This document shows positions 692 to 63,080 of a stretch of DNA of 64,000 nucleotides, piece by piece. The notes under the pieces were generated by a model. The model was not told where the DNA came from. It saw only the letters and a program-made list of their open reading frames with translations, and did no database searches. Source of the DNA: Patescibacteria group bacterium (GTDB lineage: Bacteria > Patescibacteriota > Microgenomatia > UBA1400 > CG1-02-47-37); assembly GCA_038065055.1 (NCBI GenBank), contig JBBTRT010000005.1, positions 2,706 to 66,705 of the forward strand, written 5' to 3'. Position numbers and translations under genes: made by a program. Within the stretch, counting starts at the first letter, position 1, and each line of letters opens with the position of its first letter.

Positions 692-764
692 GACTCTATT
701 CTACCATTACCACTACGGTTAACAGGATATTTGCAAACCTTAGAAAATGGTTTATTCTTAAAGT

Positions 765-1865
765 ATGATTGGAAAATGGCCCGGATTAATTTTATTGATT
801 TTGGCAGTGGTTATTGGAGGAAGATTAAGTTTCAACCGGGAAGAAACCAAACCGGATTTTAAGTTACAAGTCGAAAACGGGGTAAAAGGAGTTTTCCTCG
901 GCCAAGAGGTGATGCCACCGCAAATTGACTTGGCTATGGTTGAGCCGGTAACCCAGGTTTTGGGCGATGCCGACGCAACCGGAGAAAAACATATTTACGT
1001 TGACTTAGCTACCCAAACCCTGACGGCCTATCAGGGAGACAGTTTGTTTATGAAAGTTCTGGTTTCCACCGGAAAATGGGGCCGGACGCCGACCGGGGAT
1101 TTTACCATCTGGTCCAAATTCCGGGCGACGCGCATGTCCGGCGGCTCAGGTAATGACTATTACAACCTGCCGAATGTGCCCTATGTCATGTTTTTTTCCG
1201 GCTCTGGCGTAGCGGCCGCTAGGGGCTTTGCTTTGCACGGGACTTATTGGCATAATAATTTCGGCCATCCGATGAGCCATGGCTGTGTCAATATGAGGAC
1301 AGTTGACGCTCAAAAAATATTCGGCTGGGCAGATATCGATACCAAAATAATAATCGATAGTCAAATTCAGGCAATTGCTGAGCCAAGCCCTAGCCCGGAG
1401 CAGACTTTAGCCGGCATATCATCAGACGGGAAAATTAACCTGGAGATGAAGCAGGAAAAAGGCGCGAGCGCCATTACCTGGACTCTGACTGCTAAACAAG
1501 GCGAGGAAGCGGCAAGCACCATCTGGTGGCAGACCTTAGCGGCTGAAACCACGATCTCGATCCCGCTCAACACGGTTTCCCCGGATAATAAATATATGTT
1601 TTTAAAGCAAACCGGGCCGGATAAAACCCGCTATTTGGTGCTAACTACCAGCGGCAAACCACTTAAGTCCGGCGCGCAAACAGTGGAGTTCGCCGAGCTG
1701 TTTGAGGCCAAGTACCCGGAATATAAAATTACCGAGGCGACCGGCTGGGGCGGGATGAATTTAATTGTATTTAATACCGATAAAGCCAAGGGGGGCATAG
1801 GGCCGTCTTTTTGGTTTGACTTGGCTGGTAAATCGTTTATTCAGCTGTCGAATCGATTTGAGTAG
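765..1865 (+). CDS. L,D-transpeptidase (YkuD domain) with an N-terminal membrane anchor and an uncharacterised C-terminal domain
   Basis: Catalytic motif HGTYWHNNFGHPMSHGCVNM (the H...SHGC signature of YkuD). The N-terminus has a hydrophobic helix (GLILLILAVVIGG). Confidence 0.85.
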   Translation: MIGKWPGLILLILAVVIGGRLSFNREETKPDFKLQVENGVKGVFLGQEVMPPQIDLAMVEPVTQVLGDADATGEKHIYVDLATQTLTAYQGDSLFMKVLVSTGKWGRTPTGDFTIWSKFRATRMSGGSGNDYYNLPNVPYVMFFSGSGVAAARGFALHGTYWHNNFGHPMSHGCVNMRTVDAQKIFGWADIDTKIIIDSQIQAIAEPSPSPEQTLAGISSDGKINLEMKQEKGASAITWTLTAKQGEEAASTIWWQTLAAETTISIPLNTVSPDNKYMFLKQTGPDKTRYLVLTTSGKPLKSGAQTVEFAELFEAKYPEYKITEATGWGGMNLIVFNTDKAKGGIGPSFWFDLAGKSFIQLSNRFE

Positions 1866-1895
1866 GAATTGCTACGTCTAACTGGCTAACACTGG

Positions 1896-1916
1896 CTAAC
1901 ACACCCGGGGTGTTAG
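1896..1916. terminator. GC-rich hairpin CTAACAC-ACCCGGG-GTGTTAG after the L,D-transpeptidase gene; no clear U-tract
   Basis: A 7-bp stem was read directly. It is preceded by the tandem ACTGGCTAAC x2 (1881-1900). The same 20 nt recur at 2181-2200. Confidence 0.45.
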
Positions 1917-1962
1917 CAGTGTGACAGAAAATTCAGGCATAATTTAAGGATATAAAGAAAAT

Positions 1963-2170
1963 ATGGGAAAACCCGGATAAACCTAAGTGCAGTATTAAAG
2001 GGAATATCGGCAGAGACGATAAAAGCCGCTACTATCATTTTCCCGGCTGCCAGCGCTACGATTGGATTTCAGTGGATTTATACCTTGGCGACCAGTGGTT
2101 CTGTACGGAAAAAGAAGCGCAAAAGGCCGGATTTACCAAATCCTCCCAGTGTTTTGAGAAAAAGTTCTGA
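1963..2170 (+). pseudogene. Frameshifted mini-gene for a small Cys-containing module (IKGNI...YHFPGC...WFCTEKEAQKAGF), resembling what I recall being annotated as 'sunset domain'
   Basis: ATG at 1963 sits 6 nt after TATAAA (1951-1956) but hits TAA after 5 codons. The conserved domain is in the +1 frame (1943-2170, stop TGA 2168-2170), which has no ATG/GTG/TTG upstream of it. Removing one G from the ATGGG run would restore MENPDKPKCSIKGNIG... Confidence 0.5.
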
Positions 2171-2233: not shown

Positions 2234-2761
2234 TTATTCCATTTTGACAATGTTTAAACCGTCGGCAATAACCACTATATCCTGAGACAGAAAGGTTAAA
2301 ACGGCCTGTTCGGATCCATGGGATTGCATTAAAGCATCGTGGTAGGAAATCTGAGTAATAACCTTTTTGATAATTTCGTCAGGTTTAAAGTCTTGAAATC
2401 TGCACCGGGCAAAAAAATTGCCGGCAAAAATAGCGGCAATAAACGAAGCGCCAGCGATTTTACCGGTTGGACTCCCCATCGAAAACCTACCCACTTCCAC
2501 CAACGGAATCCTATAGAATGCCGGAATTACTGCCAGTAATAGTTGTTTTTTGGCTCCAAGTTCGAATACGGTATTAGCGGCGGCATTGGCATATACAGAA
2601 TCTATGGCTACTTTACCAAATTGGACCGGCGCTGGAAATTTAAGTTCTTCCCTGGAATCGGTTAACTGTTTTAAAACCGCATAAAGGGAACCCTTTAAAT
2701 TATGCTGAGTATCTTTAACTTCTTCTCTTTCTCTGGGTTCTAAATCTGCTAATTTTGACAT
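2234..2761 (-). CDS. hypothetical protein (175 aa)
   Basis: Clean ORF. A leaderless-type promoter TGTATAAT (complement of 2768-2775) lies 6 nt upstream of the ATG. I recognise no family. Confidence 0.6.
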   Translation of the reverse strand: MSKLADLEPREREEVKDTQHNLKGSLYAVLKQLTDSREELKFPAPVQFGKVAIDSVYANAAANTVFELGAKKQLLLAVIPAFYRIPLVEVGRFSMGSPTGKIAGASFIAAIFAGNFFARCRFQDFKPDEIIKKVITQISYHDALMQSHGSEQAVLTFLSQDIVVIADGLNIVKME

Positions 2762-2799
2762 GGAGGCATTATACAGTAAAAAGTGGTATAAATAGGGGT

Positions 2800-3519
2800 A
2801 TGGACAGGAGTAAGACGCGGTTGGAGAGAAAAAGAGACCAGAATAGCCTGAAACAGGCGGTTAAGTATATTTTCCTGATTGTTTTAAGTTTGGGTTTAAT
2901 TTTTAAATTCGGCTTGCCGGCACTGATTAACATGGCCGGATTGATCGGCAGTTTTAACCAGGCTAAAATCCCAATCGAAAAACAAGACGTGATCCCCCCG
3001 ACCGCGCCGAGAATGGATTTTCTGCCGGAAGCGACTAACAGCGGCCAATTAGATATTCACGGCCAGGCGGAAAGCGGCACTACGGTCCAACTTTTTATCA
3101 ACGGTTTAAATACCAAAGAATCAATCGCTGATAGCGAGGGGCAATTTAAATTTGACAACATTCATTTCCGCGACGGCGAGAATGAAGTTTACGTTCAGGC
3201 TAAAGACGGCGAAAATAACCTTGGCCAAGCCTCCAAAACCGTGACGGTGCGGGTAGACCAGGAGCCGCCGGCCCTGGAAATTACTAAACCCAAGGCCAGC
3301 GACCGCTTTTTTGATAAGGACAATCCCATCAGCGCGGAAGGGAAAAGTGAAGAAGGGGCAAACCTGACGGTGAATAATCACTTTGTGCTGGTGCGAAGCG
3401 ACGGGAGTTTTAGCACGCAAATAAGTTTAACGACGGGAGATAATCAGTTAGATTTTGTGGCTAAAGACAAAGCCGGCAACGAAACCAAGAAAATAATTAC
3501 CGTAAATTACACGCCTTAA
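2800..3519 (+). CDS. membrane-anchored surface protein with two Ig-like (Big-type) domains
   Basis: TM helix YIFLIVLSLGLIFKFGLPALI. Two repeats follow the pattern I.G.aE.G..v.v..N......d..G.F......GdN...v.AkD.aGN. The start was moved to ATG 2800, 7 nt after TATAAA (2787-2792); the track start is 2755. Confidence 0.65.
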   Translation: MDRSKTRLERKRDQNSLKQAVKYIFLIVLSLGLIFKFGLPALINMAGLIGSFNQAKIPIEKQDVIPPTAPRMDFLPEATNSGQLDIHGQAESGTTVQLFINGLNTKESIADSEGQFKFDNIHFRDGENEVYVQAKDGENNLGQASKTVTVRVDQEPPALEITKPKASDRFFDKDNPISAEGKSEEGANLTVNNHFVLVRSDGSFSTQISLTTGDNQLDFVAKDKAGNETKKIITVNYTP

Positions 3520-15924: not shown

Positions 15925-17023
15925 AAACTGCCTTGATGATTGTTTTTTGATCAGCCAGAGATAAATCCGGATAGATTGGCAACATGACAATTTTGGGCCA
16001 AACTTTTTCCACGGTGGGCACCTGGGACGGAAAAGATTTAAACATCGGGTAATAATGGTTCGGCAAGTAATGGACATTGGCAGAAATGCCTTTGGCGTTT
16101 AAATAGTCGATAAACCGGTCGCGAATTTTAGCCTTGACTTGGATAAAATAATTATGATGGCTGGAACGGGCCCAACTTTTAACCGGCGGAGCTGAAAGCC
16201 AGGACAAAGAAATAAAGGCTTGATTATAGCGCTGGTAAATTTTTTGGCGGCGGGCATTTGTCTTAACTAATTTAGCTAATTGAATTAGGCCAATGGATGC
16301 ACTAATATCGTTCATCTGGTATTTAAAACCCAGGTCAGTAACCGCATACTCCCATTTATGAGGCTGGCGGCCGGAATAGCGTTTCCAGGTAGAAGAACTA
16401 ATTCCGGACCAGGCTAAGTGGCGAATGCGGTCAGCCTTAGCTTTATCATTGGTTACCACCATGCCGCCGTCGCCAGTGGTAATATTTTTAATGGCGGCAA
16501 AAGAAAAGCAGCCCAAGTCCCCAAAGCCGCCCACGTGGCGGCCATAATAATAACTGCCGGCAGCGTGAGCGCAGTCTTCAATTAAAGTAATTTGTTTCTC
16601 CCGGCAAACTTTAGTTAAGGGCTTTAAATCCATGGGGTGGCCGCCGTAATGCAGGACTAAAATGGCTTTAGTTTTGCGGGTAATTTTATTTAAAACATCA
16701 TTAACGTCGGTAGATAAAGTTTCCGGGTCGCAGTCGCTGAAAACAATTTTACCGCCGGCTTGTAAAATGGTTTGGTTGGCGGCAACAAAAGTCAGGGACG
16801 GACTGATCACTTCATCGCCGGGCCGGATGGAAGTTAAAAAAGATAAGTGGAGGGCAGCGGTAGCGGAATTCAAAGCGACCGCATATTTAGTATGGGTTAG
16901 CTTGGCCATTTGGGCCTCAAAGGCTAAAGTTTGCGGGCCATTGCCCAGCCAACCGGAACGCAAAACTTTTATCACCGCCGCTTCTTCGGCCTTGCCTAAG
17001 GAAGGTTTAAATAAGGGGATCAT
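15911..17023 (-). CDS. DegT/DnrJ/EryC1/StrS sugar aminotransferase
   Basis: MIPLFKPSLGKAEEAAV... and the FSFAAIKNITTGDGG PLP-lysine region. The start was trimmed to ATG 17023 (TAATG overlap with the upstream gene). Confidence 0.85.
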   Translation of the reverse strand: MIPLFKPSLGKAEEAAVIKVLRSGWLGNGPQTLAFEAQMAKLTHTKYAVALNSATAALHLSFLTSIRPGDEVISPSLTFVAANQTILQAGGKIVFSDCDPETLSTDVNDVLNKITRKTKAILVLHYGGHPMDLKPLTKVCREKQITLIEDCAHAAGSYYYGRHVGGFGDLGCFSFAAIKNITTGDGGMVVTNDKAKADRIRHLAWSGISSSTWKRYSGRQPHKWEYAVTDLGFKYQMNDISASIGLIQLAKLVKTNARRQKIYQRYNQAFISLSWLSAPPVKSWARSSHHNYFIQVKAKIRDRFIDYLNAKGISANVHYLPNHYYPMFKSFPSQVPTVEKVWPKIVMLPIYPDLSLADQKTIIKAVYDFN

Positions 17024-17886
17024 TATCTTAGAATTATACCAGAAATGGCTCCGGCCATAACCGCTAAATCCGCGGTTAACTGAAGGCCGGGCAAATAAAT
17101 TATGCCCCGCCAATTGGTGAGATAACGAAAGTGTTTAAAGATTGGCCAAAGCAAGTAAAGCAAAAATAACCACGGAAAAAATATGAAAACTAGGTAACGG
17201 CCAAAAACAGTGGCGATTTTAATTAAATGCGGCCGAAAGCGTGCCTGAATATCGCCTTGAGCATAGTGATACAGCTGGCGGAAAAACCGGGAAAAACCAG
17301 CCGCTTGCCGCCAAAAAACAATTGCTTTAGGGGCAGTGGCCATTTTACCTTTGGCTTTCAGTTTTTGGGCAAAAACCAGGTCTTCGCAATAATTTAAGTT
17401 GGCTGGATATTCGGCAACTCCTTTTCTGAAAGCGAGTGAGCGGGATGAAGGCAGATAGGTTTTTGGGTTAAATTTATCCGGCATAACGCAGACAAACAAG
17501 GAAGCATAGTATTGAAAAACAGTGTCTATTTTCGGTTGGTAGTAGCCGGCCACGGACAGCACGGTTTTATCTTTAAACGGCTTAGTTAAGCGTTCCAGCC
17601 AATGCTTATCTAAAATACAGCCGGCGTCGGTAATGGCAATGATTTCATTTTGAGCGGCTTTTATTCCCAAGTTTCTCCCAGTTGATCGATTAGTCCCCCT
17701 ATCACACACCAGGAGTGTGATAGGGTATTGCCGGAGTATTTCGAGCGTGCCATCGGTTGAACCGGCATCCACCACAATAATTTCACTTGGGGGCAAAGAT
17801 TGTTCAAAAAGTGAATTTAACAGCGGCTTGATCGTCTCCGCTTCATTTAATACCGTAACTATAAGGCTAACCTTAACGTCGGACAT
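17023..17886 (-). CDS. GT2 glycosyltransferase
   Basis: VSLIVTVLNEAETI...VVDAGSTDGT...AITDAGC. The start was trimmed to MSDVKVS. Confidence 0.8.
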   Translation of the reverse strand: MSDVKVSLIVTVLNEAETIKPLLNSLFEQSLPPSEIIVVDAGSTDGTLEILRQYPITLLVCDRGTNRSTGRNLGIKAAQNEIIAITDAGCILDKHWLERLTKPFKDKTVLSVAGYYQPKIDTVFQYYASLFVCVMPDKFNPKTYLPSSRSLAFRKGVAEYPANLNYCEDLVFAQKLKAKGKMATAPKAIVFWRQAAGFSRFFRQLYHYAQGDIQARFRPHLIKIATVFGRYLVFIFFPWLFLLYLLWPIFKHFRYLTNWRGIIYLPGLQLTADLAVMAGAISGIILR

Positions 17887-18529
17887 TGATACCGAAAGTA
17901 TTAGTAATTTTAAAGTCGATGCCGTCGGATTCAATGACCGCAAAACCTAAGTTGCTGATGGGCGGCTGGCCGCCTGGATGCCAACGCAACTGCTGGAAAT
18001 CTGCCCAGCCAATACGGATCAAGAAATTCCTCATTAAAGCGCCGTGGCTGACCACTAAAACCGTTTGGCTGGAGTAAGCAAAACTAATCTCCCGCAAAAA
18101 AGTAATTAACCGGGTGACGGCGGCGCCCAAATTTTCAATCCCGTAAGGAAACTGAAACTCAAATTTTTCTTCGGTGGATAATTTCTCGTAATCGGCCAGC
18201 AGCTGTTTAAGCTTGGCGTGGTAAACAGTTTCCGGTTGGCCTTCCAGCTCGCCGAAACCCCGCTCCCGCAATATATGATGGGCCGTTACGGCTAATTGGT
18301 GCTGCAAGCCGATAATTTTCGCGGTTTGGTTGGCCCGGACAGCTTGCGAAGAAAAAGCGGCCGCAAACGGAATTGTTTTTAATTTTTTGGCGGCGGCCCG
18401 GGCCTGTTTAACGCCGGTTGAATTTAAAGGGGCATCGATTGTCGAACCCTGGATAATTCCCTGTTTATTATTGTCAGTTTCGCCGTGGCGGACGAGATAG
18501 ATGGTGCACTGTTTGATTATTTTTGCCAT
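17873..18529 (-). CDS. histidine phosphatase family protein (phosphoglycerate-mutase-like)
   Basis: IYLVRHGETDNN catalytic RHG motif and a downstream SHG (VVSHGALM). Confidence 0.8.
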   Translation of the reverse strand: MAKIIKQCTIYLVRHGETDNNKQGIIQGSTIDAPLNSTGVKQARAAAKKLKTIPFAAAFSSQAVRANQTAKIIGLQHQLAVTAHHILRERGFGELEGQPETVYHAKLKQLLADYEKLSTEEKFEFQFPYGIENLGAAVTRLITFLREISFAYSSQTVLVVSHGALMRNFLIRIGWADFQQLRWHPGGQPPISNLGFAVIESDGIDFKITNTFGINVRR

Positions 18530-19476
18530 AACTGAAGATATATTTTAGCAACTCCTGACCACTTAGGATACTTCGGGCATGGCGGCAGATTTTGATCAAG
18601 CTGGCTGATTAGCTCCTGGGCTGAATTGCTGATATGGATGTGTTTGGCGGCCGGAAAGGTAATTAAATAATCTTTTTTTAAGCCATTGTTGTACAAGGCA
18701 AATACCTGGCGCTTGAGCCTTAACGCTTCCCAAATAATCAGGTAAGACGAGCAGAAAACATGGCTGGCGCTGAGTAAAAAGGGTTGAATATTGTTAACTT
18801 TGCCAACAACCCGGCCAAGTTTAACGGCCTTTTGGCGAAGCGGGCCATCGCCCACAAAAGTAATTTTATAACCCTGTTTGGTTAAGATTTTAAAAGCCTT
18901 AAAGTACTCCAATAAACCTAAATCTGCTTGCAAGCGGCCGATAAAAATCAGGTGTTTAGTTTTAGGCTGGGCGGGTTTAATTTTAATTGGTTCAACGGCG
19001 CCATAAGAAATAAAATCAGGTTTGGTTTTATACCAAATGGTTAAATAGCCGCCGATGCAAATATTGCCCCAAGAAAGCCATTCATAGAGCTTTCTTAAAA
19101 CCAGGTTTTTTAATGGAATAGGAAACTTCCCTTCCCAGCCGTGAAAGGTGGTAAAGACTGGTTTAAATGGTAAAAGCAGGCAAAAAGGCAAATACCAAAA
19201 AAAGATGTCGTGGCAGTGAATAATGTCAGCTGATTTAAAAAGCTGCCGATTTTGCCAAAGTTTGCGCCATATCCCCCATTTGGATTCGCAATAGGGGAGC
19301 CGGACGACTTTAATTCCCTGAATTAGTTCAAAAGATTTTAATTTGGGATCGTATTTTTGGGTGGCAATCGTGACTTGGTGGTTGCGTTTCACTAATTCCC
19401 GGCTGATCATTAAAACGTGTTTTTCAGCTCCGCCAATATGCGGATAAAAGAATTTAGTGAGGAAAAGTATTTTCAT
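18517..19476 (-). CDS. GT4/GT1-type glycosyltransferase; first gene of the minus-strand glycan operon
   Basis: MKILFLTKFFYPHIGGAEKHV. TGGTAAAAT (complement of 19485-19493) lies 8 nt upstream of the ATG. Confidence 0.7.
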   Translation of the reverse strand: MKILFLTKFFYPHIGGAEKHVLMISRELVKRNHQVTIATQKYDPKLKSFELIQGIKVVRLPYCESKWGIWRKLWQNRQLFKSADIIHCHDIFFWYLPFCLLLPFKPVFTTFHGWEGKFPIPLKNLVLRKLYEWLSWGNICIGGYLTIWYKTKPDFISYGAVEPIKIKPAQPKTKHLIFIGRLQADLGLLEYFKAFKILTKQGYKITFVGDGPLRQKAVKLGRVVGKVNNIQPFLLSASHVFCSSYLIIWEALRLKRQVFALYNNGLKKDYLITFPAAKHIHISNSAQELISQLDQNLPPCPKYPKWSGVAKIYLQLWQK

Positions 19477-19504
19477 TCTCCTATATTTTACCAGACGCGG
19501 TCAG

Positions 19505-19527
19505 CCTGCGAGGAGAGTCCTTGTTGG
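19505..19527. repeat. REP-like palindrome, degenerate copy (CCTGCGAGGA GAG TCCTTGTTGG)
   Basis: Read directly. It shares 19 nt (AGCCTGCGAGGAGAGTCCT) with the copy at 63083-63101. Confidence 0.7.
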
Positions 19528-19587
19528 CAGGGCTTAAGTTTACTAATCTGATAGACAAAGAACATAAAAAGTTAATATAATAAAAGA

Positions 19588-19872
19588 ATGATGAAAATTG
19601 ATAATAAACAGTATAAGGAAGATATAAAAAAAGAGGAAAACCTTTGGAATAATACAGCCAAAGAAGAACTAAATATATTTCAACCTGATTATAAATTTTA
19701 TCAAAAAACAATACCTTATAAAATATATCGAGATGTTTATGTCAAAAAAATGTTAGAAAAAATCAGTTTTGGAGATAAAGTTCTCGAATTAGGTTGTTAC
19801 AATGGTTGGTTCTCATTAGAAATGGCAAGAAAAGGAGCAATAATTGACGCTTATGATTTATCCTCTAATTAA
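19588..19872 (+). pseudogene. 5' remnant of a class I methyltransferase gene, ending just after motif I/post-I
   Basis: The 94-aa ORF ends ...KVLELGCYNGWFSLEMARKGAIIDAYDLSSN*. The rest of the fold is missing and the surroundings are very AT-rich. Confidence 0.5.
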
Positions 19873-19941
19873 TTAACTAAATTATTGTAGATTAATGAAA
19901 TTAATGTTAACTTTAGAAGAATAGTAAAATTTAATAAATTT

Positions 19942-22767: not shown

Positions 22768-22819
22768 AGGCAATGGTGGTGAAGGTGATAATGAAGTGGT
22801 AAGTGGTATAATTTATCCA

Positions 22820-23302: not shown

Positions 23303-23372
23303 TTTTTTTGGTTAAGATAAATTTTTAAAGCAAGGGGTGGGGCGAGGGCAGAGGCAATTGTGAAAAAAGTGA

Positions 23373-23852: not shown

Positions 23853-23862
23853 AACTGTGTAG

Positions 23863-24336: not shown

Positions 24337-24371
24337 ATGGCATATTTTACCATTTTGCTATAATCTGGGTA

Positions 24372-24800: not shown

Positions 24801-24819
24801 ATTTTGGTATAATAGGCTT

Positions 24820-25679: not shown

Positions 25680-25695
25680 AATTTGGGATTAAGCG

Positions 25696-25724: not shown

Positions 25725-25731
25725 TAAGAGT

Positions 25732-27353: not shown

Positions 27354-27357
27354 AAAA

Positions 27358-27666: not shown

Positions 27667-27689
27667 AAAACGGTATTATAAAACAATTT

Positions 27690-31540: not shown

Positions 31541-31552
31541 AGGGTTATCTTA

Positions 31553-45512: not shown

Positions 45513-46486
45513 CGATTAATTAATTTAATAATCGTACGGGCTAATTTGGCAGAATCGTGGCGCAACAAACTGCGTTTTAAGCTGTCGCTGGTTGGTTTTT
45601 GATAAGGAGTGTTGGCCAGCAATGGTTGGCGGATTACCCGGCTGTCTTCTCCCAAATTATCTTCCACCGAATATTCAGTTTGAGTTTTGTAGGCTTGTAA
45701 AATTACCGGCGGAATCGGTTGATTATTCACAATAATACTGTCAATCTTACGACCGCTGTATTTTTCCAGCTCTTTAATATGGTCCAGGGCGGTAAAATAA
45801 TTAGTTTGGCTATTTAAAGTCATCAGGTTAACAATGTAAACTAATTTGGCTTGGGAACGTTGAAGCGCTGACCGCGACCCCTTGACAACTAAACTGGCAA
45901 TCAAACTGTTAAACAAATCGCCCGGGGCAAAAATAACCAGTTCAGCGGTTTCGATGGCAACTTTTGCCTGAGGATTAATCAAGGCTTGAGGCAAAGTGTA
46001 AAGCTTGACAATCCGTTCATTTTTTTTCAGGCGGTGGACTTCGATTTTGTGTTCGGAAATAATGGTTTGGCCATCAGAATACTCGGCAGCCAGTTTGACC
46101 ATCTGCCGGGAAATAGGCAGAATCGTGCCTTTAAGGCGGAAAAGTTTGGAAATTTGTTCAACAGCGGCCGGTTCACTGCCTAAAATGTCTTCCAAGGCAG
46201 TTAAAAATAAGTTACCCAGGCTGTGGCCCTTAATCCCTTTGCCTTTTTCAAACCGGTAAGTAAAAAGTTTTTGGAATAAGCCGTTTTCTTTTGCCAAGGC
46301 CGCCAAGCACTGGCGGATATCGCCAACCGGTAAAAATCCAAATTCATCCCGCAGGCGGCCGGTTGACCCACCATCGTCAGTGACCGGCACAATGGCGGTT
46401 AAATCGACCGGGTAATTTTTTAAACCGGAAAGCAAGACAAAACTGCCGGTGCCGCCGCCAATGACCACAATTTTTTTTTGTTGCAC
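45509..46486 (-). CDS. YvcK/CofD-family protein (gluconeogenesis factor-like); GTG start
   Basis: VVIGGGTGSFVLLSGLK...VTDDGGSTGRLR. TGGTAAAAT (complement of 46494-46502) lies 7 nt upstream of the GTG. Confidence 0.85.
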   Translation of the reverse strand: MQQKKIVVIGGGTGSFVLLSGLKNYPVDLTAIVPVTDDGGSTGRLRDEFGFLPVGDIRQCLAALAKENGLFQKLFTYRFEKGKGIKGHSLGNLFLTALEDILGSEPAAVEQISKLFRLKGTILPISRQMVKLAAEYSDGQTIISEHKIEVHRLKKNERIVKLYTLPQALINPQAKVAIETAELVIFAPGDLFNSLIASLVVKGSRSALQRSQAKLVYIVNLMTLNSQTNYFTALDHIKELEKYSGRKIDSIIVNNQPIPPVILQAYKTQTEYSVEDNLGEDSRVIRQPLLANTPYQKPTSDSLKRSLLRHDSAKLARTIIKLINR

Positions 46487-46562
46487 AGCGTCTATTTTAC
46501 CATTTGATTGACTTTTAAGAAAATAGGAATAAACTACGAGTGTAATTTACAAAAATATAATT

Positions 46563-47035: not shown

Positions 47036-47057
47036 CCTGCAGGGCTGTCCTCGTAGG
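47036..47057. repeat. REP-like palindrome, degenerate (CCTGCAGGG CTGT CCTCGTAGG), immediately 5' of the RayT-like gene promoter
   Basis: Read directly. It abuts TATAGT (47060-47065). Confidence 0.7.
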
Positions 47058-47219
47058 TGTATAGTTAAAGTAATGCCGGCAAAAAATAGTCTTAAGAATT
47101 ATTCCCCTGAGGCTTACTACCATGTTTATAATCGCGGAGTTGCCAAACAACCTATTTTTCTTGACGAGCAAGATTTTAAAACCTTTTTATCTTACCTTAA
47201 ATTTTACTTGACTACTCCC

Positions 47220-52238: not shown

Positions 52239-53272
52239 AATTTTAAAGCCTTTCTGACAGCCTGATGTTCAGACCAGGGCGATTCTATTGTACCAAAACA
52301 CATTGATTGTTCGTGGGCTTTGCCGAAACAAGCGACGGTATCTCCCGGCCGGGCCAGTTTAACCGCCAGGTTAATAGCTTTTTGGCGGTCAGGCTCAAGG
52401 TAAAGTTTTTTCTTGGTTTTATAGCCGGCTTTAATTGCCTGAATAATCTGGTTCACGTCCTCGGTGCGGGGGTCTTCGGCAGTTAAAATGGTAATATCCG
52501 CCAAACGGCCGGAAATTTCCCCCATAAGCGGCCGTTTAAGACGATCGCGCAAACCCGCGCAGCCAAAAACCGCGATCAGTCTTTTTTGAGTTTTGGAGCG
52601 CAAATACAGTAAAGCTTTTTCCAGGGCATCGGGTTTGTGGGCAAAATCAATCACCACATTAAAAGGCTTGAGGCGAACAAATTCCATCCGGCCGGGAACA
52701 CCGGGAAAAGTTTTTAGGGCCTGAGCAATAACTGTCTGCTTGATACCCATTTTTACGGCAATAGCGCTAGCGGCATTGTTATTGGCTTTGAAAAAATTGT
52801 CGGAAGGCGCAAAGCTGACTTTATTTTCCGACATTTGCAATAACTTCAATTTCGCCTGGCGGTAATTGGCAAAAGTCCGATGATAATCCAAATGCTCATG
52901 GGTGATGTTGGTAATCAGGCCGTATTTAAACTTAATTCCCCAATTGCGATTTTGATCCAAACCATGAGAAGTGACCTCGAGAACCACGTGAGTATGTTTT
53001 TTATCCAGATATGAACGGAGCAGTTTTTGCAGAGTAAACGGTTCGGGGTTAGTAACGTGCAGGCCGGGAACCGAGACAGTGGATAAAAGTGCCGCTTTAT
53101 AGCCGGCTTTAGTTAAAATATGATGCAGGAGGTGGCAGACGCTGGTTTTACCGGAGGTGCCGGTAATGCCGATGACAATGAGTTTTCTTGAGGGAAAACC
53201 ATAAATTAAGTTTGCCAAGACCGCCTGAGGCAAATGCCAAAAAAGATTAATTAGGTTTTGCCTAAAATTCAT
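52226..53272 (-). CDS. murE: MurE-like Mur ligase, short (348 aa), lacking the canonical N-terminal UDP-binding domain
   Basis: P-loop GITGTSGKTS at residue ~36, NITHEHLDYH, DFAHKPDALEKAL and TAEDPRTED (at the position of the DNPR-type motif). Confidence 0.7.
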   Translation of the reverse strand: MNFRQNLINLFWHLPQAVLANLIYGFPSRKLIVIGITGTSGKTSVCHLLHHILTKAGYKAALLSTVSVPGLHVTNPEPFTLQKLLRSYLDKKHTHVVLEVTSHGLDQNRNWGIKFKYGLITNITHEHLDYHRTFANYRQAKLKLLQMSENKVSFAPSDNFFKANNNAASAIAVKMGIKQTVIAQALKTFPGVPGRMEFVRLKPFNVVIDFAHKPDALEKALLYLRSKTQKRLIAVFGCAGLRDRLKRPLMGEISGRLADITILTAEDPRTEDVNQIIQAIKAGYKTKKKLYLEPDRQKAINLAVKLARPGDTVACFGKAHEQSMCFGTIESPWSEHQAVRKALKLCNY

Positions 53273-53334
53273 TAATCTATTGTACTACATTGGCTTTTTT
53301 TATCGAACTGATATAATATCCTATAATTAATTCT

Positions 53335-53877
53335 ATGCTCTATCAAGAACAATTTGCTGATACCAGAGCCTTAATGGGTGAGATTGATAGTTTTCTAACT
53401 CATGTCGAACCATTAAATATTAAGTTAAGTGGTGACGTATTGGTAATTGGTCCGGCACCGGATTTAATTGACTTAGTCGTAGTAGAACCGCAGTTAAATC
53501 GAGTTAAGTCAATTACCATTGTTGATCAAGATTTTAGAGCGGAAAGGGCTGGTTTTCTGAGTATTTTTCAACAATGTCACCCTGATGTTGCTGTAACTTT
53601 AATACAACCTAAGCGATTTCAAGATTTAACCCAAACATTTGACGCAATTATTTTTATAGGCGCGAGCGCTTATTTTCATATATGTAATTCTTATTTAAGC
53701 ATACCTAATCGCCTTAAACCTGGAGGAAAATTCTTCGGAACATGTAATTTCCCTCTTGAAGCGGCAACTGTAAGTTTGACTCAAGATTCAACTATGGAAG
53801 TCATTGTATCTGTGCCAGGTCATCCACGTTGGGAACCTGATTGGACCGGAATTATTATTGAGAAGGCACAACATTAA
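53335..53877 (+). CDS. hypothetical protein with a Rossmann/methyltransferase-like pattern, opposite strand within the dcw cluster
   Basis: VLVIGPAPD, ITIVDQD, FDAIIFIGA and LKPGGKFF. TATAAT (53322-53327) lies 7 nt before the ATG. The 3' end overlaps ftsI by 23 bp. Confidence 0.4.
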   Translation: MLYQEQFADTRALMGEIDSFLTHVEPLNIKLSGDVLVIGPAPDLIDLVVVEPQLNRVKSITIVDQDFRAERAGFLSIFQQCHPDVAVTLIQPKRFQDLTQTFDAIIFIGASAYFHICNSYLSIPNRLKPGGKFFGTCNFPLEAATVSLTQDSTMEVIVSVPGHPRWEPDWTGIIIEKAQH

Positions 53878-57153: not shown

Positions 57154-57171
57154 GTGGTATATAATCTAACT

Positions 57172-57630
57172 ATGACTGGTCCACTTGTTCCAAAAGATTT
57201 TAAAGTTCCTGAAGTTTTAGAAACAGAAAAATTCAGATTAAGAATGTTGAAAATCAGTGATGTGGTTAAAGATTATGATGCAGTAATGTCTAGCCTTAAC
57301 CATCTACGGGGAATTTTTGGTGATGGTAGTACCTGGCCACAAAAAGACTTGGGTTTTGAACAAGACTTAATTGATTTGGGATGGCATCAAAAAGAGTTCC
57401 AAACCAGATCATCTTTTGCCTATACGGTCATGAACCCTAATGAAAGCCAATGCTTGGGTTGCATGTATATTTTTCCCTCATCAAAACCAGAATACGAGGT
57501 CGAAATATTTATGTGGGTAAGAAAAAGTGAGTTCGATAAAGGACTTGATCAAGTGTTATTTAAAACCGTAAAGAGTTGGGTTGAAGAAAAATGGCCATTT
57601 AAAAAAGTCCGTTACCCTGGAAGAGAGTAA
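57172..57630 (+). CDS. GNAT-like acetyltransferase (tentative)
   Basis: The ETEKFRLRMLKISDVVKDYDAV N-terminal pattern and the size fit the Acetyltransf_3-type. The start was set to ATG 57172, 6 nt after TATAAT (57160-57165); the track has GTG at 57154. Confidence 0.4.
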   Translation: MTGPLVPKDFKVPEVLETEKFRLRMLKISDVVKDYDAVMSSLNHLRGIFGDGSTWPQKDLGFEQDLIDLGWHQKEFQTRSSFAYTVMNPNESQCLGCMYIFPSSKPEYEVEIFMWVRKSEFDKGLDQVLFKTVKSWVEEKWPFKKVRYPGRE

Positions 57631-58085: not shown

Positions 58086-58937
58086 TTATATCTTCAGCTT
58101 TTCTACGGCAATACCGGCAAGGACAATTAACCCGCCGCCAAGTAATTGAATCGGAGTCATGGTTTCTTTAAGTAAAGTCATGGCCATTAAACTGACAAAA
58201 ACCGGGGTTAAGGAATACATCATGGTCAGATAGGCGGCCGAAGCATATTGATAAGCCCGGAAACGAAATAAAGTTAAAACAATGTATGCACCAGCCAACA
58301 AAATTATTAAAGCGATTGATTTTGGCCAATAGACAGCATGATTAAATAAAGCAATGAGGCTAAGGGGAATGACGCCAATTAAATAGGCAGCGGCCGCACT
58401 TAAATTCGGGCTCATTCTTTTAACCGCCATTTTCCCTAAAACAGTATTTCCCAAAGCAATTAAGGCGGCTTCGATTAAGGTAAAAATATCACCGGCAGAA
58501 AACACCAGTTTTTGCCCTTGGGCGATCAATAAATATGAACCAAATAAAATTACTATGGCTAGAACTATCTTCTTTAAAGTTAGTTTTTCTCCCAGAAAAA
58601 TGTATGCAAACAAAAAAGTAAATAAGATTACAGTGCGAATTAAAAACGAGTAATTAATCGCTTGGCTATACCTTAAAGCTAAAGCTTCAGTGATGCCGAT
58701 GCCGACGGTGCTAATTAAGCCCATGCCTAAAAGAATAGTTAGATCATATCGGGTAATTTTTTTAGCCGCCTCTTTTTGTTTTAAAAACACTATTCCCCAA
58801 AATGGAACCGAGAAAATAGTAGTCCAAAAAGCGACGTTGTAAGCGTTTCCGCCGCCAATATAAATGAATCGGGCAATAATAATGGCAATTGCCCAAGATA
58901 GTGCCGCAAGAAAAGTGTATTTAAACTTCTGGGTCAT
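58086..58937 (-). CDS. EamA/DMT-family transporter
   Basis: 10 TM helices in two 5-TM halves. AAGTGGTAAAAT (complement of 58945-58956) lies 7 nt upstream of the ATG. Confidence 0.75.
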   Translation of the reverse strand: MTQKFKYTFLAALSWAIAIIIARFIYIGGGNAYNVAFWTTIFSVPFWGIVFLKQKEAAKKITRYDLTILLGMGLISTVGIGITEALALRYSQAINYSFLIRTVILFTFLFAYIFLGEKLTLKKIVLAIVILFGSYLLIAQGQKLVFSAGDIFTLIEAALIALGNTVLGKMAVKRMSPNLSAAAAYLIGVIPLSLIALFNHAVYWPKSIALIILLAGAYIVLTLFRFRAYQYASAAYLTMMYSLTPVFVSLMAMTLLKETMTPIQLLGGGLIVLAGIAVEKLKI

Positions 58938-59012
58938 TTTGGCTATTTTACCACTTACTGGATAAGTTTTATTTCCAATTACAATTAAAATCGCTAAAAC
59001 CCAGAGGCAACT

Positions 59013-60538: not shown

Positions 60539-60545
60539 ATGCCGC

Positions 60546-61340
60546 CTACCTTACCACTAAGAATGTTCCCAGGCTGGTGACCGGGGCGGAGAGCTTAGCT
60601 TCGCCAACGGTCGATTTTAACTCGGCGTAAGCCTTACCATCCCAAAACATTAACTTAGCGCCGGTCAGGTCATCTTTAGACTGGATGGTTAAAGTGGCAG
60701 ACTTTAAAGTTTGTTTGTCGGCGGCTAAAAACGCGTACGGGCCGGCTAAAACTTCACCGTCAACCGGGGCGGGAAGGCCCATGGTGCCGGAAATAATTAA
60801 ATAAGTGGCACTGGGTAAACCGGATTTACCCACGTCCAAAGTGGCTTTAATATCTTTGCTGGTAAACACCCCCTGGCGGTCAAACATATTTTGGAGGTTA
60901 AAGTCAGACTTTAAAGTATAAGCTTCGCTGCCGCCGTCGAAACGCAAAGTTAAACTGCCGCCGGAAACATTTTCATCGTAACGGCATTTACCCTTGGAGC
61001 AGGAACCAAAGAGTAGGTTTTTGGCCACCGGAGTGGGTTCTTGCGAAAAATCTATGTTGCCGAAAACGCCCTGGATTAAATTGTCAGCCTGGTATTCCAT
61101 TTCGTACTCCACTTTAGTGGCATTGGTGACTTTATCAATCCCCAAGGTCACTTCCTTACCGTCTGCCCTGGGAATTAAGGTCACAAAAGGCCTGTCTTTG
61201 AGCGCTAATTGGTTGATTTGCTCGACTTTACGGCTAGCGGGTTTGGTAGTTTCTGTGTTTTTTGGTTTTTTATAAATATAAATACCGACGATTAAAACAA
61301 TAATAATAGCGGGAATAATATATTTTAAGTAAGGTTTCAT
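60546..61340 (-). CDS. hypothetical membrane-anchored extracytoplasmic protein
   Basis: N-terminal TM helix YIIPAIIIVLIVGIYIY; the remainder looks beta-rich. I recognise no family. Confidence 0.5.
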   Translation of the reverse strand: MKPYLKYIIPAIIIVLIVGIYIYKKPKNTETTKPASRKVEQINQLALKDRPFVTLIPRADGKEVTLGIDKVTNATKVEYEMEYQADNLIQGVFGNIDFSQEPTPVAKNLLFGSCSKGKCRYDENVSGGSLTLRFDGGSEAYTLKSDFNLQNMFDRQGVFTSKDIKATLDVGKSGLPSATYLIISGTMGLPAPVDGEVLAGPYAFLAADKQTLKSATLTIQSKDDLTGAKLMFWDGKAYAELKSTVGEAKLSAPVTSLGTFLVVR

Positions 61341-62689
61341 AGTTTCTCCTGAAAATAGTTAACTAATTGATCAATTTTGATTCGCTCCTGTTTCATGGTG
61401 TCCCGGTCGCGGACCGTGACCGCCTTATCTTTTAGGCTATCAAAATCCACGGTAATGCACCAGGGGGTGCCGGCTTCGTCCTGACGGCGGTAGCGCTTGC
61501 CGATGTTACCACCATCATCCCAGGCGGTGGTGAATTTAGGACTTAAGAGTTTAAAAACCTGACGGGCGGCAGTAACTAACTCTGGTTTATTTGGCAATAA
61601 TGGAAAAACAGCGACTTTAAATGGTGCCAAACGGGGGGTTAATTTTAACACCACTCGGTCTTTTTCCTCAGTGTAGGCTTCAGTCAGTAAAACCAGAATT
61701 GAGCGGGATAAGCCAAAAGTCGGTTCGATGACGTGGGGAATGAATTTTTCCTGAGTGTAGGGGTCGGTGTAGCGCAAATCCACGCCACTTTTTTCCATGT
61801 GGTTTTTCAGATCAAAATCAGTCCGGTAAGCACAAGCAAACCACTCTTTAAAACCAAAGGGGAATTCGTATTCTAAATCTTCAGTGCGCTTAGAATAGTG
61901 AGCTAATTCTTTTTGGTCGTGAGCGCGCCACTTTAATTTCTTTTTGTTAACGCCTAAGGAAACAGCAAATTTCTCGATTTCTGATTGCCAGTATTCAAAC
62001 TCTTTTTCCCAGGTTTTAGCGTCAATGTAATATTCAAATTCAGCCAAGTCGAATTCCAGAGTGCGGAAAACCTGCTGGCCTTTGGTGATTTCATTGCGGA
62101 ATACTTTGCCGGATTGGGCCAGGCCAAAAGGCAGCTTGGGAGCAAAAGTATCCAAAATTTGTTTAAAGTCCACAAACATACCCTGGGCGGTCTCCCCTCT
62201 TAAATAGGCAAGGGATTTATTTTCCGGGACAATGCCGATGTGGGTTTCGAAAAGCAAGTTGAATTTTTTGGCTTCGGTCCAGTTAAATTGGCCGCAAGCC
62301 GGGCAAGCAATCTTTTTAGTGGTGATAATTTCGTTTAATTCTGCCAAACTTTTACCTTCGACTTTGGTTTTCAATTTGTCTTCGATCAAGTGATCGGCGC
62401 GGGTACGGGTGTGGCACTGCTTGCATTCAATTAAAGCGTCGGTAAAACTGGAGGTGTGGCCGGAGGCTTCCCAAACTTTGGGGTTCATGAGAACGCTGGT
62501 TTCAAGGCCGTAAATATTTTCCCGGGTGGAAACAAAAAATTCCCACCAGTAATTCCGGAGGTTGCGCAAAAGTTCGACGCCCAAGGGGCCGTAGTCGTAA
62601 GTATTGGCCAGTCCCCCATAAATTTCCGAGCCGGGGAAAATAAACCCGCGGCGCTTAGCCAAGGCGGTCACTTGCTTAAATAAGTCCAT
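61337..62689 (-). CDS. glyQS: glycyl-tRNA synthetase (dimeric class II type)
   Basis: AKRRGFIFPGSEIYGGLANTYDYGPLG and the class II motifs (FRNEITKG..., GLSR...). Confidence 0.9.
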   Translation of the reverse strand: MDLFKQVTALAKRRGFIFPGSEIYGGLANTYDYGPLGVELLRNLRNYWWEFFVSTRENIYGLETSVLMNPKVWEASGHTSSFTDALIECKQCHTRTRADHLIEDKLKTKVEGKSLAELNEIITTKKIACPACGQFNWTEAKKFNLLFETHIGIVPENKSLAYLRGETAQGMFVDFKQILDTFAPKLPFGLAQSGKVFRNEITKGQQVFRTLEFDLAEFEYYIDAKTWEKEFEYWQSEIEKFAVSLGVNKKKLKWRAHDQKELAHYSKRTEDLEYEFPFGFKEWFACAYRTDFDLKNHMEKSGVDLRYTDPYTQEKFIPHVIEPTFGLSRSILVLLTEAYTEEKDRVVLKLTPRLAPFKVAVFPLLPNKPELVTAARQVFKLLSPKFTTAWDDGGNIGKRYRRQDEAGTPWCITVDFDSLKDKAVTVRDRDTMKQERIKIDQLVNYFQEKL

Positions 62690-63041
62690 ATCTGCCGGTA
62701 ACCCTTTGTTTTAAAATTTCAAATTCCTGACGGGTAGGAGTAGTTTCGGCTAAATTGGCAATTGATTGCTGTAAATCCCGACCCATTTTATTCATTCTAA
62801 CTACTAATCTTCGCTCTAACCGTCGTTCAGATTTGCCTAATTCGCTCTTTAAATCGTCTTTTGTGGGAAAACTTTTAAGATCATTTTTCGTGGCGAAATT
62901 TTTCAAGTCGCCTCTCGCAACTAATTTCCTTTGAGTGATTTCTTCACCGATTATTTGCCGAACATCGTCCTTGGTGGCAACACCAACATCTTTTAAAACT
63001 TTGATTAAATCTGTTTTTGTTAAAGCTTTATCTTTTACCAT
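62676..63041 (-). CDS. small coiled-coil protein with repeated (A/P)TK(D/N)DL motifs (DUF1640-like); possibly related (by repeat style) to 57670-58026
   Basis: VATKDDV..FATKNDLKSFPTKDDLKSEL. TAGTAT (complement of 63049-63054) lies 7 nt upstream of the ATG. Confidence 0.55.
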   Translation of the reverse strand: MVKDKALTKTDLIKVLKDVGVATKDDVRQIIGEEITQRKLVARGDLKNFATKNDLKSFPTKDDLKSELGKSERRLERRLVVRMNKMGRDLQQSIANLAETTPTRQEFEILKQRVTGRYGLI

Positions 63042-63080
63042 ATATGTAATACTAACAAATTGAATTAATGAAGTCTATCA

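Follow-up and report, generated by a model that had tools for sequence, protein, structure and literature searches.

-10 boxes 6-8 bases from the start codon imply leaderless mRNAs for about three quarters of the operons in 64 kb of a Microgenomates genome

Introduction

Transcripts from the extended -10 (TGnTATAAT) sigma-70 promoters of E. coli and Firmicutes normally carry a leader of 20-50 nt and a Shine-Dalgarno (SD) sequence. Another layout, with the -10 box adjacent to the open reading frame and a leaderless mRNA, has been validated experimentally in Deinococcus (PMC12340547, PMC4007540) and in M. tuberculosis (PMC3898074). As the available part of the GeneMarkS-2 paper describes it, 'group C' genomes have a Pribnow box 6-8 nt from their starts and are frequent in Actinobacteria and Deinococcus-Thermus (Lomsadze 2018, PMC6028130); no statement on CPR was found in that part. 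Nor was any prior report of a leaderless promoter design in CPR, a large uncultured group, found in the literature, or any 5'-end data for Microgenomates in the searchable literature.

Here we analyse 64 kb of one genome (the window, meaning this whole stretch of DNA) from a Microgenomates-group (CPR/Patescibacteria) bacterium of Hainich groundwater. Judged by its motifs, its architecture matches group C and the '-10 adjacent to ORF' pattern of Deinococcus-Thermus, where likewise TAnnnT lies a few bp ahead of an ATG or GTG with no SD, and an optional -35 at 17 bp raises expression (de Groot 2014, PMC4007540; Zhong 2025, PMC12340547). There the design covers ~30% of ORFs and 47-60% of mRNAs, here 24/67 ORFs and ~74% of unit-first genes. 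Unlike in Deinococcus-Thermus, the phylum is Patescibacteria, the genome portion has ~43% GC and the box is usually TGG-extended; Deinococcus, moreover, has a clear GGAG motif class, whereas SD is rare at the internal genes of the window, and its case is experimentally validated, while ours is predicted from sequence. With M. tuberculosis (Cortes 2013, PMC3898074) and group C (PMC6028130), the window shares the Pribnow box at 6-8 nt of first-in-operon genes, the coexistence of leaderless genes with others, and starts restricted to AUG and GUG. About 40% of M. tuberculosis operons are predicted to be leaderless, the rest having an SD at the same distance (PMC3898074); here the leaderless fraction exceeds that, and SD hardly occurs. 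Leaderless genes of Archaea (GeneMarkS-2 group D) resemble those described here in lacking a 5' UTR, in their high leaderless share and in handling internal genes differently, but they are transcribed from a TATA box/BRE ~26 nt upstream that TBP/TFB recognise, instead of from a -10 box at 6-8 nt.

Materials and methods

A curated gene table of the window comprised 27 transcription-unit-first and 43 operon-internal genes. For the shuffle test, each 40-nt upstream region was permuted 5000 times with its composition preserved; the start-agnostic test assigned to each ORF of 80 aa or more its first ATG and scored boxes at a gap of 6-8 nt. E. coli served as control, and 80 Patescibacteria loci formed the wider comparison set.

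Results

Boxes ahead of transcription units

The sites are given below by span and strand, followed by the box, its gap to the start codon, and the start codon itself.

689..706 (-): TGGTAGAAT (698-706), 6 nt, ATG 691; extended -10 of a DUF2130 gene
753..767 (+): TATTCT (weak), 6 nt, ATG 765; YkuD L,D-transpeptidase gene, divergent from 691
1951..2170 (+): TATAAA, 6 nt, ATG 1963; doubtful, ATG frame of 5 codons (MGKPG, then stop)
2759..2773 (-): TATAAT, 6 nt, ATG 2761; half of a back-to-back pair, 38-bp intergenic region
2784..2802 (+): TGGTATAAA, 7 nt, ATG 2800; Ig-domain protein, hexamer not TAnnnT, TGG extension present
19474..19493 (-): TGGTAAAAT, 8 nt, ATG 19476; first gene of a 16-kb glycosyltransferase operon
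19552..19590 (+): TAGACA-18-TATAAT, 6 nt, ATG 19588; newly listed
22804..22822 (+): TGGTATAAT, 7 nt, ATG 22820
24334..24352 (-): TGGTAAAAT, 7 nt, ATG 24336; half of a back-to-back pair, 35-bp intergenic region
24356..24374 (+): TGCTATAAT, 7 nt, ATG 24372; partner of 24336, hexamers 9 bp apart
24805..24822 (+): TGGTATAAT, 6 nt, ATG 24820; transaldolase, Pfam profile from residue 4
25696..25734 (+): TTGACA-17-TAGCAT, 7 nt, ATG 25732; signal peptidase I
27664..27704 (-): TTGGCA-18-TATAAT, 8 nt, ATG 27666; rplU-rpmA-parB unit
31538..31577 (-): terminator-like hairpin and T-run (31559-31577), TGTTAAGAT (31547-31555), 6 nt, ATG 31540; ileS
31610..31629 (+): TGTTAAGTT (TGtTAAGTT), 8 nt, ATG 31627; newly listed
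46484..46502 (-): TGGTAAAAT, 7 nt, GTG 46486; CofD-family gene starting the mur/fts cluster unit, Pfam profile from residue 6
47036..47075 (+): REP-like hairpin (47036-47057), TATAGT (47060-47065), 7 nt, ATG 47073; IS200-like Y1 transposase
53270..53284 (-): TACAAT, 6 nt, ATG 53272; Mur ligase, newly listed
53322..53337 (+): TATAAT, 7 nt, ATG 53335
57155..57174 (+): TGGTATATAAT, overlapping TATATA/TATAAT, 6 nt, ATG 57172
58935..58953 (-): TGGTAAAAT, 7 nt, ATG 58937; EamA transporter, Pfam position 7 at residue 8
63039..63057 (-): TGTTAGTAT, 7 nt, ATG 63041; glyS-containing unit

The original prediction had placed such hexamers before 19 starts, and all 19, with their start codons, lie where it put them, at gaps of 6 nt (8 sites), 7 nt (8 sites) or else 8 nt; the 8-nt gaps, at 3 sites, imply leaders of 1-2 nt rather than zero. 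Eighteen of them lie ahead of credible gene starts. At 1963 the ATG begins an ORF of just 5 codons, and a sunset-domain ORF (NCBIfam NF051437, 38 bits) occupies the +1 frame, 1964-2170, without a canonical start, so that 1963 is not a clean gene start; this doubtful site may reflect a frameshift, an assembly error or a pseudogene. Most of the listed hexamers are indeed TAnnnT, the exceptions being TATAAA at 1951-1956 and 2787-2792, and TATTCT (753-758) is weak. That a box precedes "essentially every" unit start was an overstatement: a strict TAnnnT at 6-8 nt is found in 20 of the 27 unit-first genes. Conversely, boxes at 19588, 53272 and 31627, and several -10-like boxes before operon-internal genes, had gone unlisted.

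Positional lock

Could AT-rich intergenic DNA simply yield TAnnnT near starts? The upstream regions are 70% A+T, and the pattern is loose, with 2533 copies in the window; yet the shuffles gave only 3.2 +/- 1.7 unit-first genes with a box at 6-8 nt (maximum 9) against the 20 observed, and 0.43 against 14 for TAnAAT. Gaps of 3-5 and 9-11 nt showed no box enrichment in either the start-agnostic or the shuffle test, the E. coli control had no 6-8 nt peak (2/63 start-agnostic, 2/43 annotated starts), and the box is conserved in orthologues (see below). An artefact of chance or composition, which the shuffles and positional controls already refute, retains a negligible probability. When starts were treated agnostically, 24 of 67 ORFs were boxed (5.1 expected, P ~1e-9), and 9 of the 41 TATAAT copies in the window lie 6-8 nt ahead of a long-ORF ATG. 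The comparison of box-to-start distances between first and internal genes proposed with the prediction returned, at window scale, both a 6-8 nt peak and a unit-first bias (20/27, 74%, versus 10/43, 23%; Fisher P 5e-5).

An unbiased word search of positions -20 to -1 put TATA, TAnnnT, GGTA and TGGT on top and found no SD-like word enriched; as predicted, an SD core is missing upstream of unit starts (0/26 unit-first genes, against 24/43 in E. coli by the same rule). The unit-first start codons comprise 26 ATG and 1 GTG, with no others. Outside the window, a tiny test found TATTAT at 6 nt from the transketolase start and a box at 11 nt from that of the neighbouring 87-aa gene.

Resemblance to sigma-70 promoters

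The element has the look of a sigma-70 promoter and not of a ribosome-binding site. The frequent TG(G) extension that had been claimed is borne out by a TGn ahead of 11 of the 20 unit-first boxes, compared with 130 of all 2533 TAnnnT in the window (5%), so that, as in E. coli and Firmicutes, TG at -15/-14 directly precedes the hexamer. TGGTAWAAT occurs in 10 copies (2.2 expected), 7 of them 6-9 nt from gene starts. T, T and G are enriched at -23 to -21 from the hexamer, i.e. at a 17-bp spacer, in the window and the 80 Patescibacteria loci. A number of boxes lacking TGn are instead served by a good -35 at 17-18 bp, again as in those sigma-70 promoters: TTGGCA (27666), TAGACA (19588) and, at 25732, the TTGACA that had been pointed out. 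A generic promoter scan of 19-33 kb returned exactly these box sites as its best matches. What sets them apart from the E. coli/Firmicutes type is that the start codon occupies the expected +1 position.

Both divergent regions described as holding two promoters in under 40 bp do so: 2762-2799 (38 bp) and 24337-24371 (35 bp) separate start codons that each have their own extended -10. At ileS the hairpin and T-run end 3 nt before TGTTAAGAT, so that hairpin, box and ATG fall within ~40 nt.

Would the promoters be real but the true starts lie downstream of the annotated ATGs, on short-leadered mRNAs? Start codons are often miscalled in metagenome-assembled genomes, several first genes encode hypothetical proteins whose N-terminus no family model pins down, and the 1963 ATG shows that the one after a box need not open the real frame. 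Against this, Pfam profiles start 1-16 residues from the ATG in L21, transaldolase, LepB, CofD, EamA and GT4, IleRS of 35 relatives agrees in its N-terminus to within +/-3 residues in the alignment, downstream candidate starts have no SD or other preceding signal, and the exact 6-8 nt register to the ATG would be left unexplained. We regard such misplacement as very improbable.

Exceptions and operon-internal genes

Seven of the 27 unit-first genes have no strict box: 57083 (mraZ), 34388 (ftsZ), 19942, 46563, 58026, 2800 and 1963. For mraZ, a classical leadered promoter is predicted, with operator-like repeats in the leader.

19942: TAAAAT at 11 nt
46563: TATAAT at 1 nt, AAAAAT at 6 nt
58026: TACTAA
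57081..57153 (-): mraZ promoter, TTGACA (57148-57153), 17 nt, CAAAAT (57125-57130), ~36-nt leader, ATG 57083
57113-57116, 57103-57106, 57093-57096: three GTGG repeats of the mraZ leader, 10-nt period

Internal genes had been assigned to overlaps or SD-like sequences. The first part stands, with 34 of 43 overlapping the upstream gene, and coupling by overlap probably dominates among them; the second applies to only ~3-4 genes (4/43, equal to the control window; a good AGGAG at only ~3, including the one cited for rsmH, at 56682-56678). TAnnnT at 6-8 nt precedes 10 of 43 internal genes (~3 expected), and because only 1 of the 10 has TGn these boxes are of uncertain status. Including one at a 9-nt gap, such -10-like boxes are possible internal leaderless promoters; alternatively, they may have another role or be due to chance.

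17033-17041 (-): TGGTATAAT, 9 nt, ATG 17023
11724-11729 (-): TAGAAT, 6 nt
13831-13836 (-): TAAAAT, 7 nt
33270-33275 (-): TAAAAT, 6 nt, TTG start
39858-39863 (-): TAATAT, 7 nt
41559-41564 (-): TATAAT, 6 nt, mraY
55553-55558: TAAAAT, 6 nt, ftsI, outside the 17021..41564 span

Perhaps, then, TAnnnT/TAWAAT is no promoter at all but a non-SD translation signal within a leadered 5' UTR, an AT-rich landing site for the ribosome or S1. The GeneMarkS-2 'group B' genomes of Bacteroidetes offer a precedent for a non-SD AT-rich signal; SD use near nil in the genome calls for some other initiation signal; and the internal boxes, at ~3x chance and mostly without TGn, would suit one. However, a ribosome-binding site should serve first and internal genes equally (a criterion given in PMC6028130), whereas the motif strongly favours the former. 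Translation has no use for the TGn at -15/-14 or for a TTG set off by a 17-bp spacer, both of them features of sigma-70 contact; the 35-38 bp divergent regions leave no space for a separate upstream promoter, and the ileS box directly follows a terminator-like hairpin. A translation signal of this kind is therefore improbable.

Conservation

In the nearest relative (L082/L083; 53-74% amino-acid identity at five proteins), all 5 comparable genes have a box at 6-8 nt: ileS TGtTAAGAT at 6 nt, with the whole hairpin-box-ATG arrangement kept in L082; rplU TATAAT at 6 nt; lepB, for which L082 retains TAGCAT at 7 nt; tal TAAACT at 8 nt; and the L083 GT4 orthologue of 19476 TGgTAAAAT at 7 nt. Spacer sequences differ from those of the source while the boxes stay. 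More widely, a box stands at 6-8 nt in 12 of 31 rplU orthologues among the Patescibacteria loci, and the 80 loci show the same signal, weaker (TGn 28-30% versus 9-10%, P ~1e-7); the same architecture thus appears detectable across Patescibacteria. In most other Microgenomates ileS looks leadered, with a hairpin and T-run abutting the ATG or AAGGA upstream, which suggests that the leaderless state is evolutionarily labile.

Discussion

Wherever the leaderless-promoter reading makes a prediction testable on sequence, that prediction held, and the reading is supported accordingly: it is likely that these are primary-sigma promoters positioned to start transcription on the start codon or 1-2 nt ahead of it. 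RNA polymerase holoenzyme would recognise an extended -10 of consensus TGG-TAWAAT, the -35 (TTGnnn at 17-18 bp) being often weak and good mostly where TGn is missing; it would open the DNA and initiate at the A of the ATG, which follows the hexamer by 6-8 nt. Initiation there would yield an mRNA without a 5' UTR and therefore without SD, and the ribosome would load straight onto the 5'-terminal AUG, while downstream genes of the operon would rely mostly on translational coupling where stop and start codons overlap. We infer the leaderless mRNA, the transcription start site and the mode of ribosome loading from the DNA.

For about three quarters of the operons, the -10 box 6-8 bases from the start codon would thus imply leaderless mRNAs, and a leaderless promoter design well known from Deinococcus and Actinobacteria would extend to Microgenomates/CPR.

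Organism and gene content

The window has a GC content of about 43% and is densely coding, with long co-directional operons in which the following genes and clusters are found.

Operon of 16 kb, glycosyltransferase and methyltransferase genes
ileS-rodA
rplU-rpmA-parB
lepB and the transaldolase gene (tal)
47073-47729, ORF of an IS200-like Y1 transposase
Complete division cluster mraZ-rsmH-ftsL-ftsI...mur...ftsQAZ, divided among several units

An Rfam search of the window returned a single tRNA and nothing else. Judged by its sequence, the source organism belongs to the Microgenomates group of the CPR/Patescibacteria: its IleRS resembles (at most 63% identity) the IleRS of Microgenomates-group genomes, Candidatus Gottesmanbacteria included, and matching contigs come from Hainich groundwater. 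One contig from well H51 (0.1 µm fraction) is 100% identical, and several Hainich assemblies contain the same organism at 99.5-100% identity, among them the 276-kb contig Hain_H52_02um_R3_5 of ERZ1292621. A look-up of the exact IleRS protein gave no match.

A hexamer in fixed register with start codons

The original prediction held that a TAnnnT (extended) -10 box lies 6-8 nt from the start codon at 19 transcription-unit starts. All 19 hexamers are where they were placed, each 6-8 nt from an ATG or, once, a GTG, and most conform to TAnnnT, the three off-pattern sites being TATAAA (1951 and 2787) and TATTCT (753). One listed gene start did not survive: the ATG at 1963 opens only MGKPG, four codons past the ATG and then a stop. 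In a curated table of 70 genes, strict TAnnnT stands at 6-8 nt in 20/27 unit-first genes (gaps of 6, 7 and 8 nt in 8, 9 and 3 genes), so that 'essentially every' unit start was too strong a wording for a set in which seven lack the box; conversely, the boxes at the unit-first sites 19588, 53272 and 31627 had been overlooked. Unit-first start codons comprise 26 ATG and 1 GTG.

Composition-preserving shuffles would yield 3.2 +/- 1.7 such unit-first genes against the 20 observed. Among operon-internal genes the box occurs at 6-8 nt in 10/43 (Fisher P 5e-5 against the first genes), which is still about 3-fold over chance. The distance comparison that had been proposed with the prediction, run in the window, thus bore it out, with a peak at 6-8 nt that is higher in first than in internal genes and far above shuffles.

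Three further tests do not depend on the prediction's choice of start codons. When anchored on the motif, 304 copies of TAnAAT in the window are followed 6 or 7 nt downstream by an ATG in 25 cases, versus about 4 for each of the other gaps, and ORFs of 80 aa or more begin at 16 of these 25 ATGs; 9 of the 41 TATAAT copies precede the ATG of a long ORF at gaps 6-8. When each ORF of 80 aa or more is instead anchored on its first ATG, TAnnnT is found at gaps 6-8 in 24/67, versus 5.1 expected from gaps 12-30 (P ~1e-9); the same script applied to 50 kb of E. coli, the negative control, gave 2/63. Finally, the top words in an exhaustive search of positions -20 to -1 of unit-first genes are TATA, TAnnnT, GGTA and TGGT, with no SD-like word appearing.

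The Deinococcus radiodurans megaplasmid MP1 (L086) was dropped as a positive control, the first-ATG method failing in high-GC DNA; at its annotated starts 4/42 carry a box, a count that is uninformative as a control. A generic promoter/terminator scan of 1-20 kb gave 43 hits versus 36 in shuffles, a total not above the shuffles and hence uninformative; in 19-33 kb its best hits fall on the claimed box sites. The 9 kb past the right end of the window form one long co-directional operon with zero new unit starts, and the same genome left of the window (L099) adds two only. At 374-401 of L099, the start codons of an 87-aa gene and of the transketolase gene diverge 22 nt apart and have one palindromic TATTATA segment in common; depending on the strand, it is TATTAT at 6 nt or TATAAT at 11 nt.

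Protein comparisons bear on the starts themselves. Pfam profile position 1 aligns with residue 4 of transaldolase, residue 14 of GT4 and residue 6 of CofD (for which no start other than GTG is possible), position 3 with residue 4 of L21 and residue 16 of LepB, and position 7 with residue 8 of EamA. For IleRS, 35 relatives have N-termini that align to within three residues. The predicted feature is real, and its interpretation is correct in the main.

Promoter or ribosome-binding site?

Might the box nevertheless be a non-SD translation signal within a leader, i.e. a ribosome-binding motif of the GeneMarkS-2 group B type? This main rival draws some weight from the essential absence of SD cores in the window: as had been predicted, none occurs in 26 unit-first genes, and internal genes have them in 4/43, a frequency equal to that of the control window, as compared with 24/43 in E. 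coli under the same rule. A ribosome-binding motif is, however, expected at first and internal genes alike, whereas a strong first-gene bias is seen; the flanks of the box are of promoter type; and the divergent regions of 35-38 bp leave no space for a leader.

As regards the flanks, the predicted TG extension holds, TGn preceding 11/20 unit-first hexamers versus 5% of all TAnnnT, and TGGTAWAAT occurs in 10 copies versus 2.2 expected, 7 of them 6-9 nt before starts. Three boxes without TGn have a -35 element at a spacer of 17-18 bp.

lepB (25732), TTGACA, 6/6 match
rplU (27666), TTGGCA, 5/6 match
19588, TAGACA, 5/6 match

At the remaining sites a -35 is not recognisable, and in the window as well as in relatives the hexamer-aligned columns -23 to -21 are enriched for T, T and G. 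TGn and the -35 are contacts of sigma-70 regions 3.0 and 4, respectively, and have no use in translation, which is why a promoter is favoured over a ribosome-binding site.

The geometry of the divergent regions agrees with the promoter reading. In both 2762-2799 (38 bp) and 24337-24371 (35 bp), where back-to-back promoters had been proposed, each start codon indeed has its own extended -10, and no space is left for further promoters or leaders. Upstream of ileS, a GC hairpin with a T-run (31559-31577) stops 3 nt before TGTTAAGAT, which is followed by 6 nt and the ATG. Taken at the sequence level, the -10 position, the first-gene bias, the absence of SD and the AUG/GUG starts appear as expected of a leaderless-gene architecture (GeneMarkS-2 group C / TA-led), and the TG at -15/-14 as expected of a sigma-70 extended -10.

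Further copies of these elements were noted. Perfect TGGTAAAAT lies within genes at three places, in two cases in antisense orientation, and no start codon follows; these copies may have arisen by chance or may be promoters, antisense or internal.

1099-1107, minus strand
23507-23515, plus strand
28478-28486, plus strand

The prefix AGTGGTAWA (5 window copies versus 0.36 expected) is common to four boxes, at 2782-2792, 22802-22812 and 57153-57163 on the plus strand and 58945-58955 on the minus strand, and recurs at 39892-39902 (plus); the GTGGTA unit is doubled at 22793-22812. The AAGTGG prefix of the four boxes may represent a site for a regulator (MraZ-like GTGG), an UP-like site or shared ancestry.

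A model for leaderless expression and coupling

What is observed is a promoter-type motif in fixed register to the start codon, free of SD and conserved. RNA polymerase with the primary sigma factor would initiate at the A of the ATG, the canonical discriminator length being a -10 to +1 distance of 6-8 nt. No SD-anti-SD interaction would take part in translating the resulting 5'-AUG mRNA, and translation of the downstream cistrons would occur by coupling. Internal genes had been expected to use overlaps or SD sequences, of which the overlaps stand: 34/43 overlap the gene before them, in many cases by 8-38 nt and not by the usual 1 or 4. AGGAG at 5-7 nt is found at three internal genes. The 16S 3' end is absent from the window and from all fetched loci; most CPR retain the anti-SD (PMC9297842).

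Conservation in relatives

In the closest sequenced relative (loci L082/L083), the box stands at 6-8 nt in 5/5 comparable unit-first genes, whose proteins have 53-74% amino-acid identity.

ileS, TGtTAAGAT at 6 nt; upstream hairpin also kept, loop different
rplU, TATAAT at 6 nt
lepB, TAGCAT at 7 nt; hexamer identical to that of the window
tal, TAAACT at 8 nt
GT4, TGgTAAAAT at 7 nt (8 nt in the window)

Between the two genomes, the spacers have different sequences. Strain contigs (L081, L087-L092; 99.5-100% identical metagenome contigs) were uninformative on constraint of the box. Both the peak at 6-8 nt and the enrichment of TGn were found again (P 1e-7 to 1e-20) in 80 Patescibacteria loci totalling 1.4 Mb, in the Microgenomates-like as well as the Parcubacteria-like half, with TGn at 28-30% versus 9-10%. 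Low SD frequencies (9-17%) were likewise noted in these loci. By a crude automatic classification the window is the highest of the loci (52% of unit-first genes versus a mean of ~20-23%), and in 12/31 genomes a box precedes rplU by 6-8 nt. The trait is labile, as most of the other ileS orthologues appear to have leaders. In many Microgenomates (comparison loci L004, L006, L033, L024, L016, L018, L020, L003 and L058) ileS has a GC hairpin ~45 nt upstream, with AAGGAGG in its 3' arm and a T-run abutting the ATG, unlike the window and L082; it looks like an attenuator or a T-box-type leader.

Exceptions and neighbouring elements

The division cluster contains what reads as a clear leadered exception with a classical promoter.

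57081-57153, minus strand, mraZ: TTGACA-17-CAAAAT, ~36-nt leader, three GTGG repeats with a 10-nt period

The GTGG repeats have the arrangement expected of an MraZ operator, and the mraZ -35 overlaps the promoter of the divergent 57172. For ftsZ neither a -10 box nor an SD is found in the window (34389-34410, minus strand) or in L082 (~13520-13545, minus strand); the upstream string ctgcccggat is common to both. At 19942, TAAAAT at 11 nt implies a leader of ~4 nt; the start at 46563 is preceded by TATAAT (1 nt) and AAAAAT (6 nt). Good boxes also stand before seven or eight internal genes, e.g. mraY, ftsI, murD and degT (start 17023, TGGTATAAT at 9 nt), and may be internal leaderless promoters; among the ten internal genes with a box at 6-8 nt, TGn is present just once.

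At the abortive ATG 1963, a sunset-domain ORF (NCBIfam NF051437; 1964-2170) runs in the +1 frame without a canonical start, and a 1-nt indel in the GGGAAAACCC run in 1960-1975 would align its frame with the ATG; likely causes are a single-base indel, gene decay or an assembly error. Two copies of the hairpin AACACACCCGGGGTGTT (1898-1914 and 2183-2199) bracket this ORF, and a short tandem array of GTTAAGAG-like units (2197-2233) follows it.

The AGGAG reported before rsmH is present at 56682-56678 (minus strand). In 56629-56685 (minus strand) there is no ATG, GTG or TTG upstream of the conserved HNPVLLHEV motif, and the listed TTG start cuts 16 positions off the Pfam profile. The sole near-cognate codon is CTG 56668-56666, 9 nt past AGGAG, and a non-canonical start is possible.

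A family of ~23-nt palindromic hairpins (CCTRCRRGG-ACNGT-CCYTGNAGG) occurs at 19505-19530, 32099-32121, 47036-47057, 47222-47244, 47526-47548, 47737-47759, 51806-51828, 51970-51992, 63086-63108, 63138-63162 and 63169-63191. Two flank the Y1 transposase ORF and two more lie inside it; the others are dispersed in intergenic DNA, three of them in the 351-nt gap upstream of 63041, and several are directly upstream of -10 boxes. The family resembles a system of the REP/RAYT or the IS200 type, here in a CPR genome.

Implications

Patescibacteria/CPR are estimated to make up at least a quarter of bacterial diversity, and to our knowledge next to nothing is known about how transcription and translation start in them. 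The mechanism itself is already known, and what is added here is a new lineage for a known architecture, which was defined computationally by Zheng et al. and demonstrated experimentally in Deinococcus (PMC4007540; PMC12340547) and mycobacteria (PMC3898074). The fraction of -10 boxes here is at least that of Deinococcota, the most prominent phylum according to a 2025 survey. The literature searched contained no paper tying leaderless expression to CPR/Patescibacteria, only reference-list matches, and a TM7x transcriptome preprint makes no mention of UTRs, promoters or transcription start sites; the sole related fact found is that about half of Parcubacteria have lost the anti-SD motif (PMC9297842).

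It is conceivable, if on balance rather doubtful, that leaderless initiation, overlap coupling and near-zero SD use are the default in this Microgenomates lineage and common across Patescibacteria. Such a default could be linked to the reduced CPR ribosomes (uL30 and bL9 lost, bS1 shortened; PMC9297842) and to the partial anti-SD loss in Parcubacteria. If true, it would be the translation-initiation regime of a large share of bacterial diversity. Should most operons be leaderless and independent of SD, a promoter-at-start model would be called for when gene starts are predicted in thousands of assembled genomes, and promoter design for the new genetic systems of Saccharibacteria would be simple: TGGTATAAT, 6-7 nt, ATG. 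For leaderless initiation as an ancestral or streamlining trait, there would be a third deep-branching bacterial lineage in which to test it against ribosome reduction.
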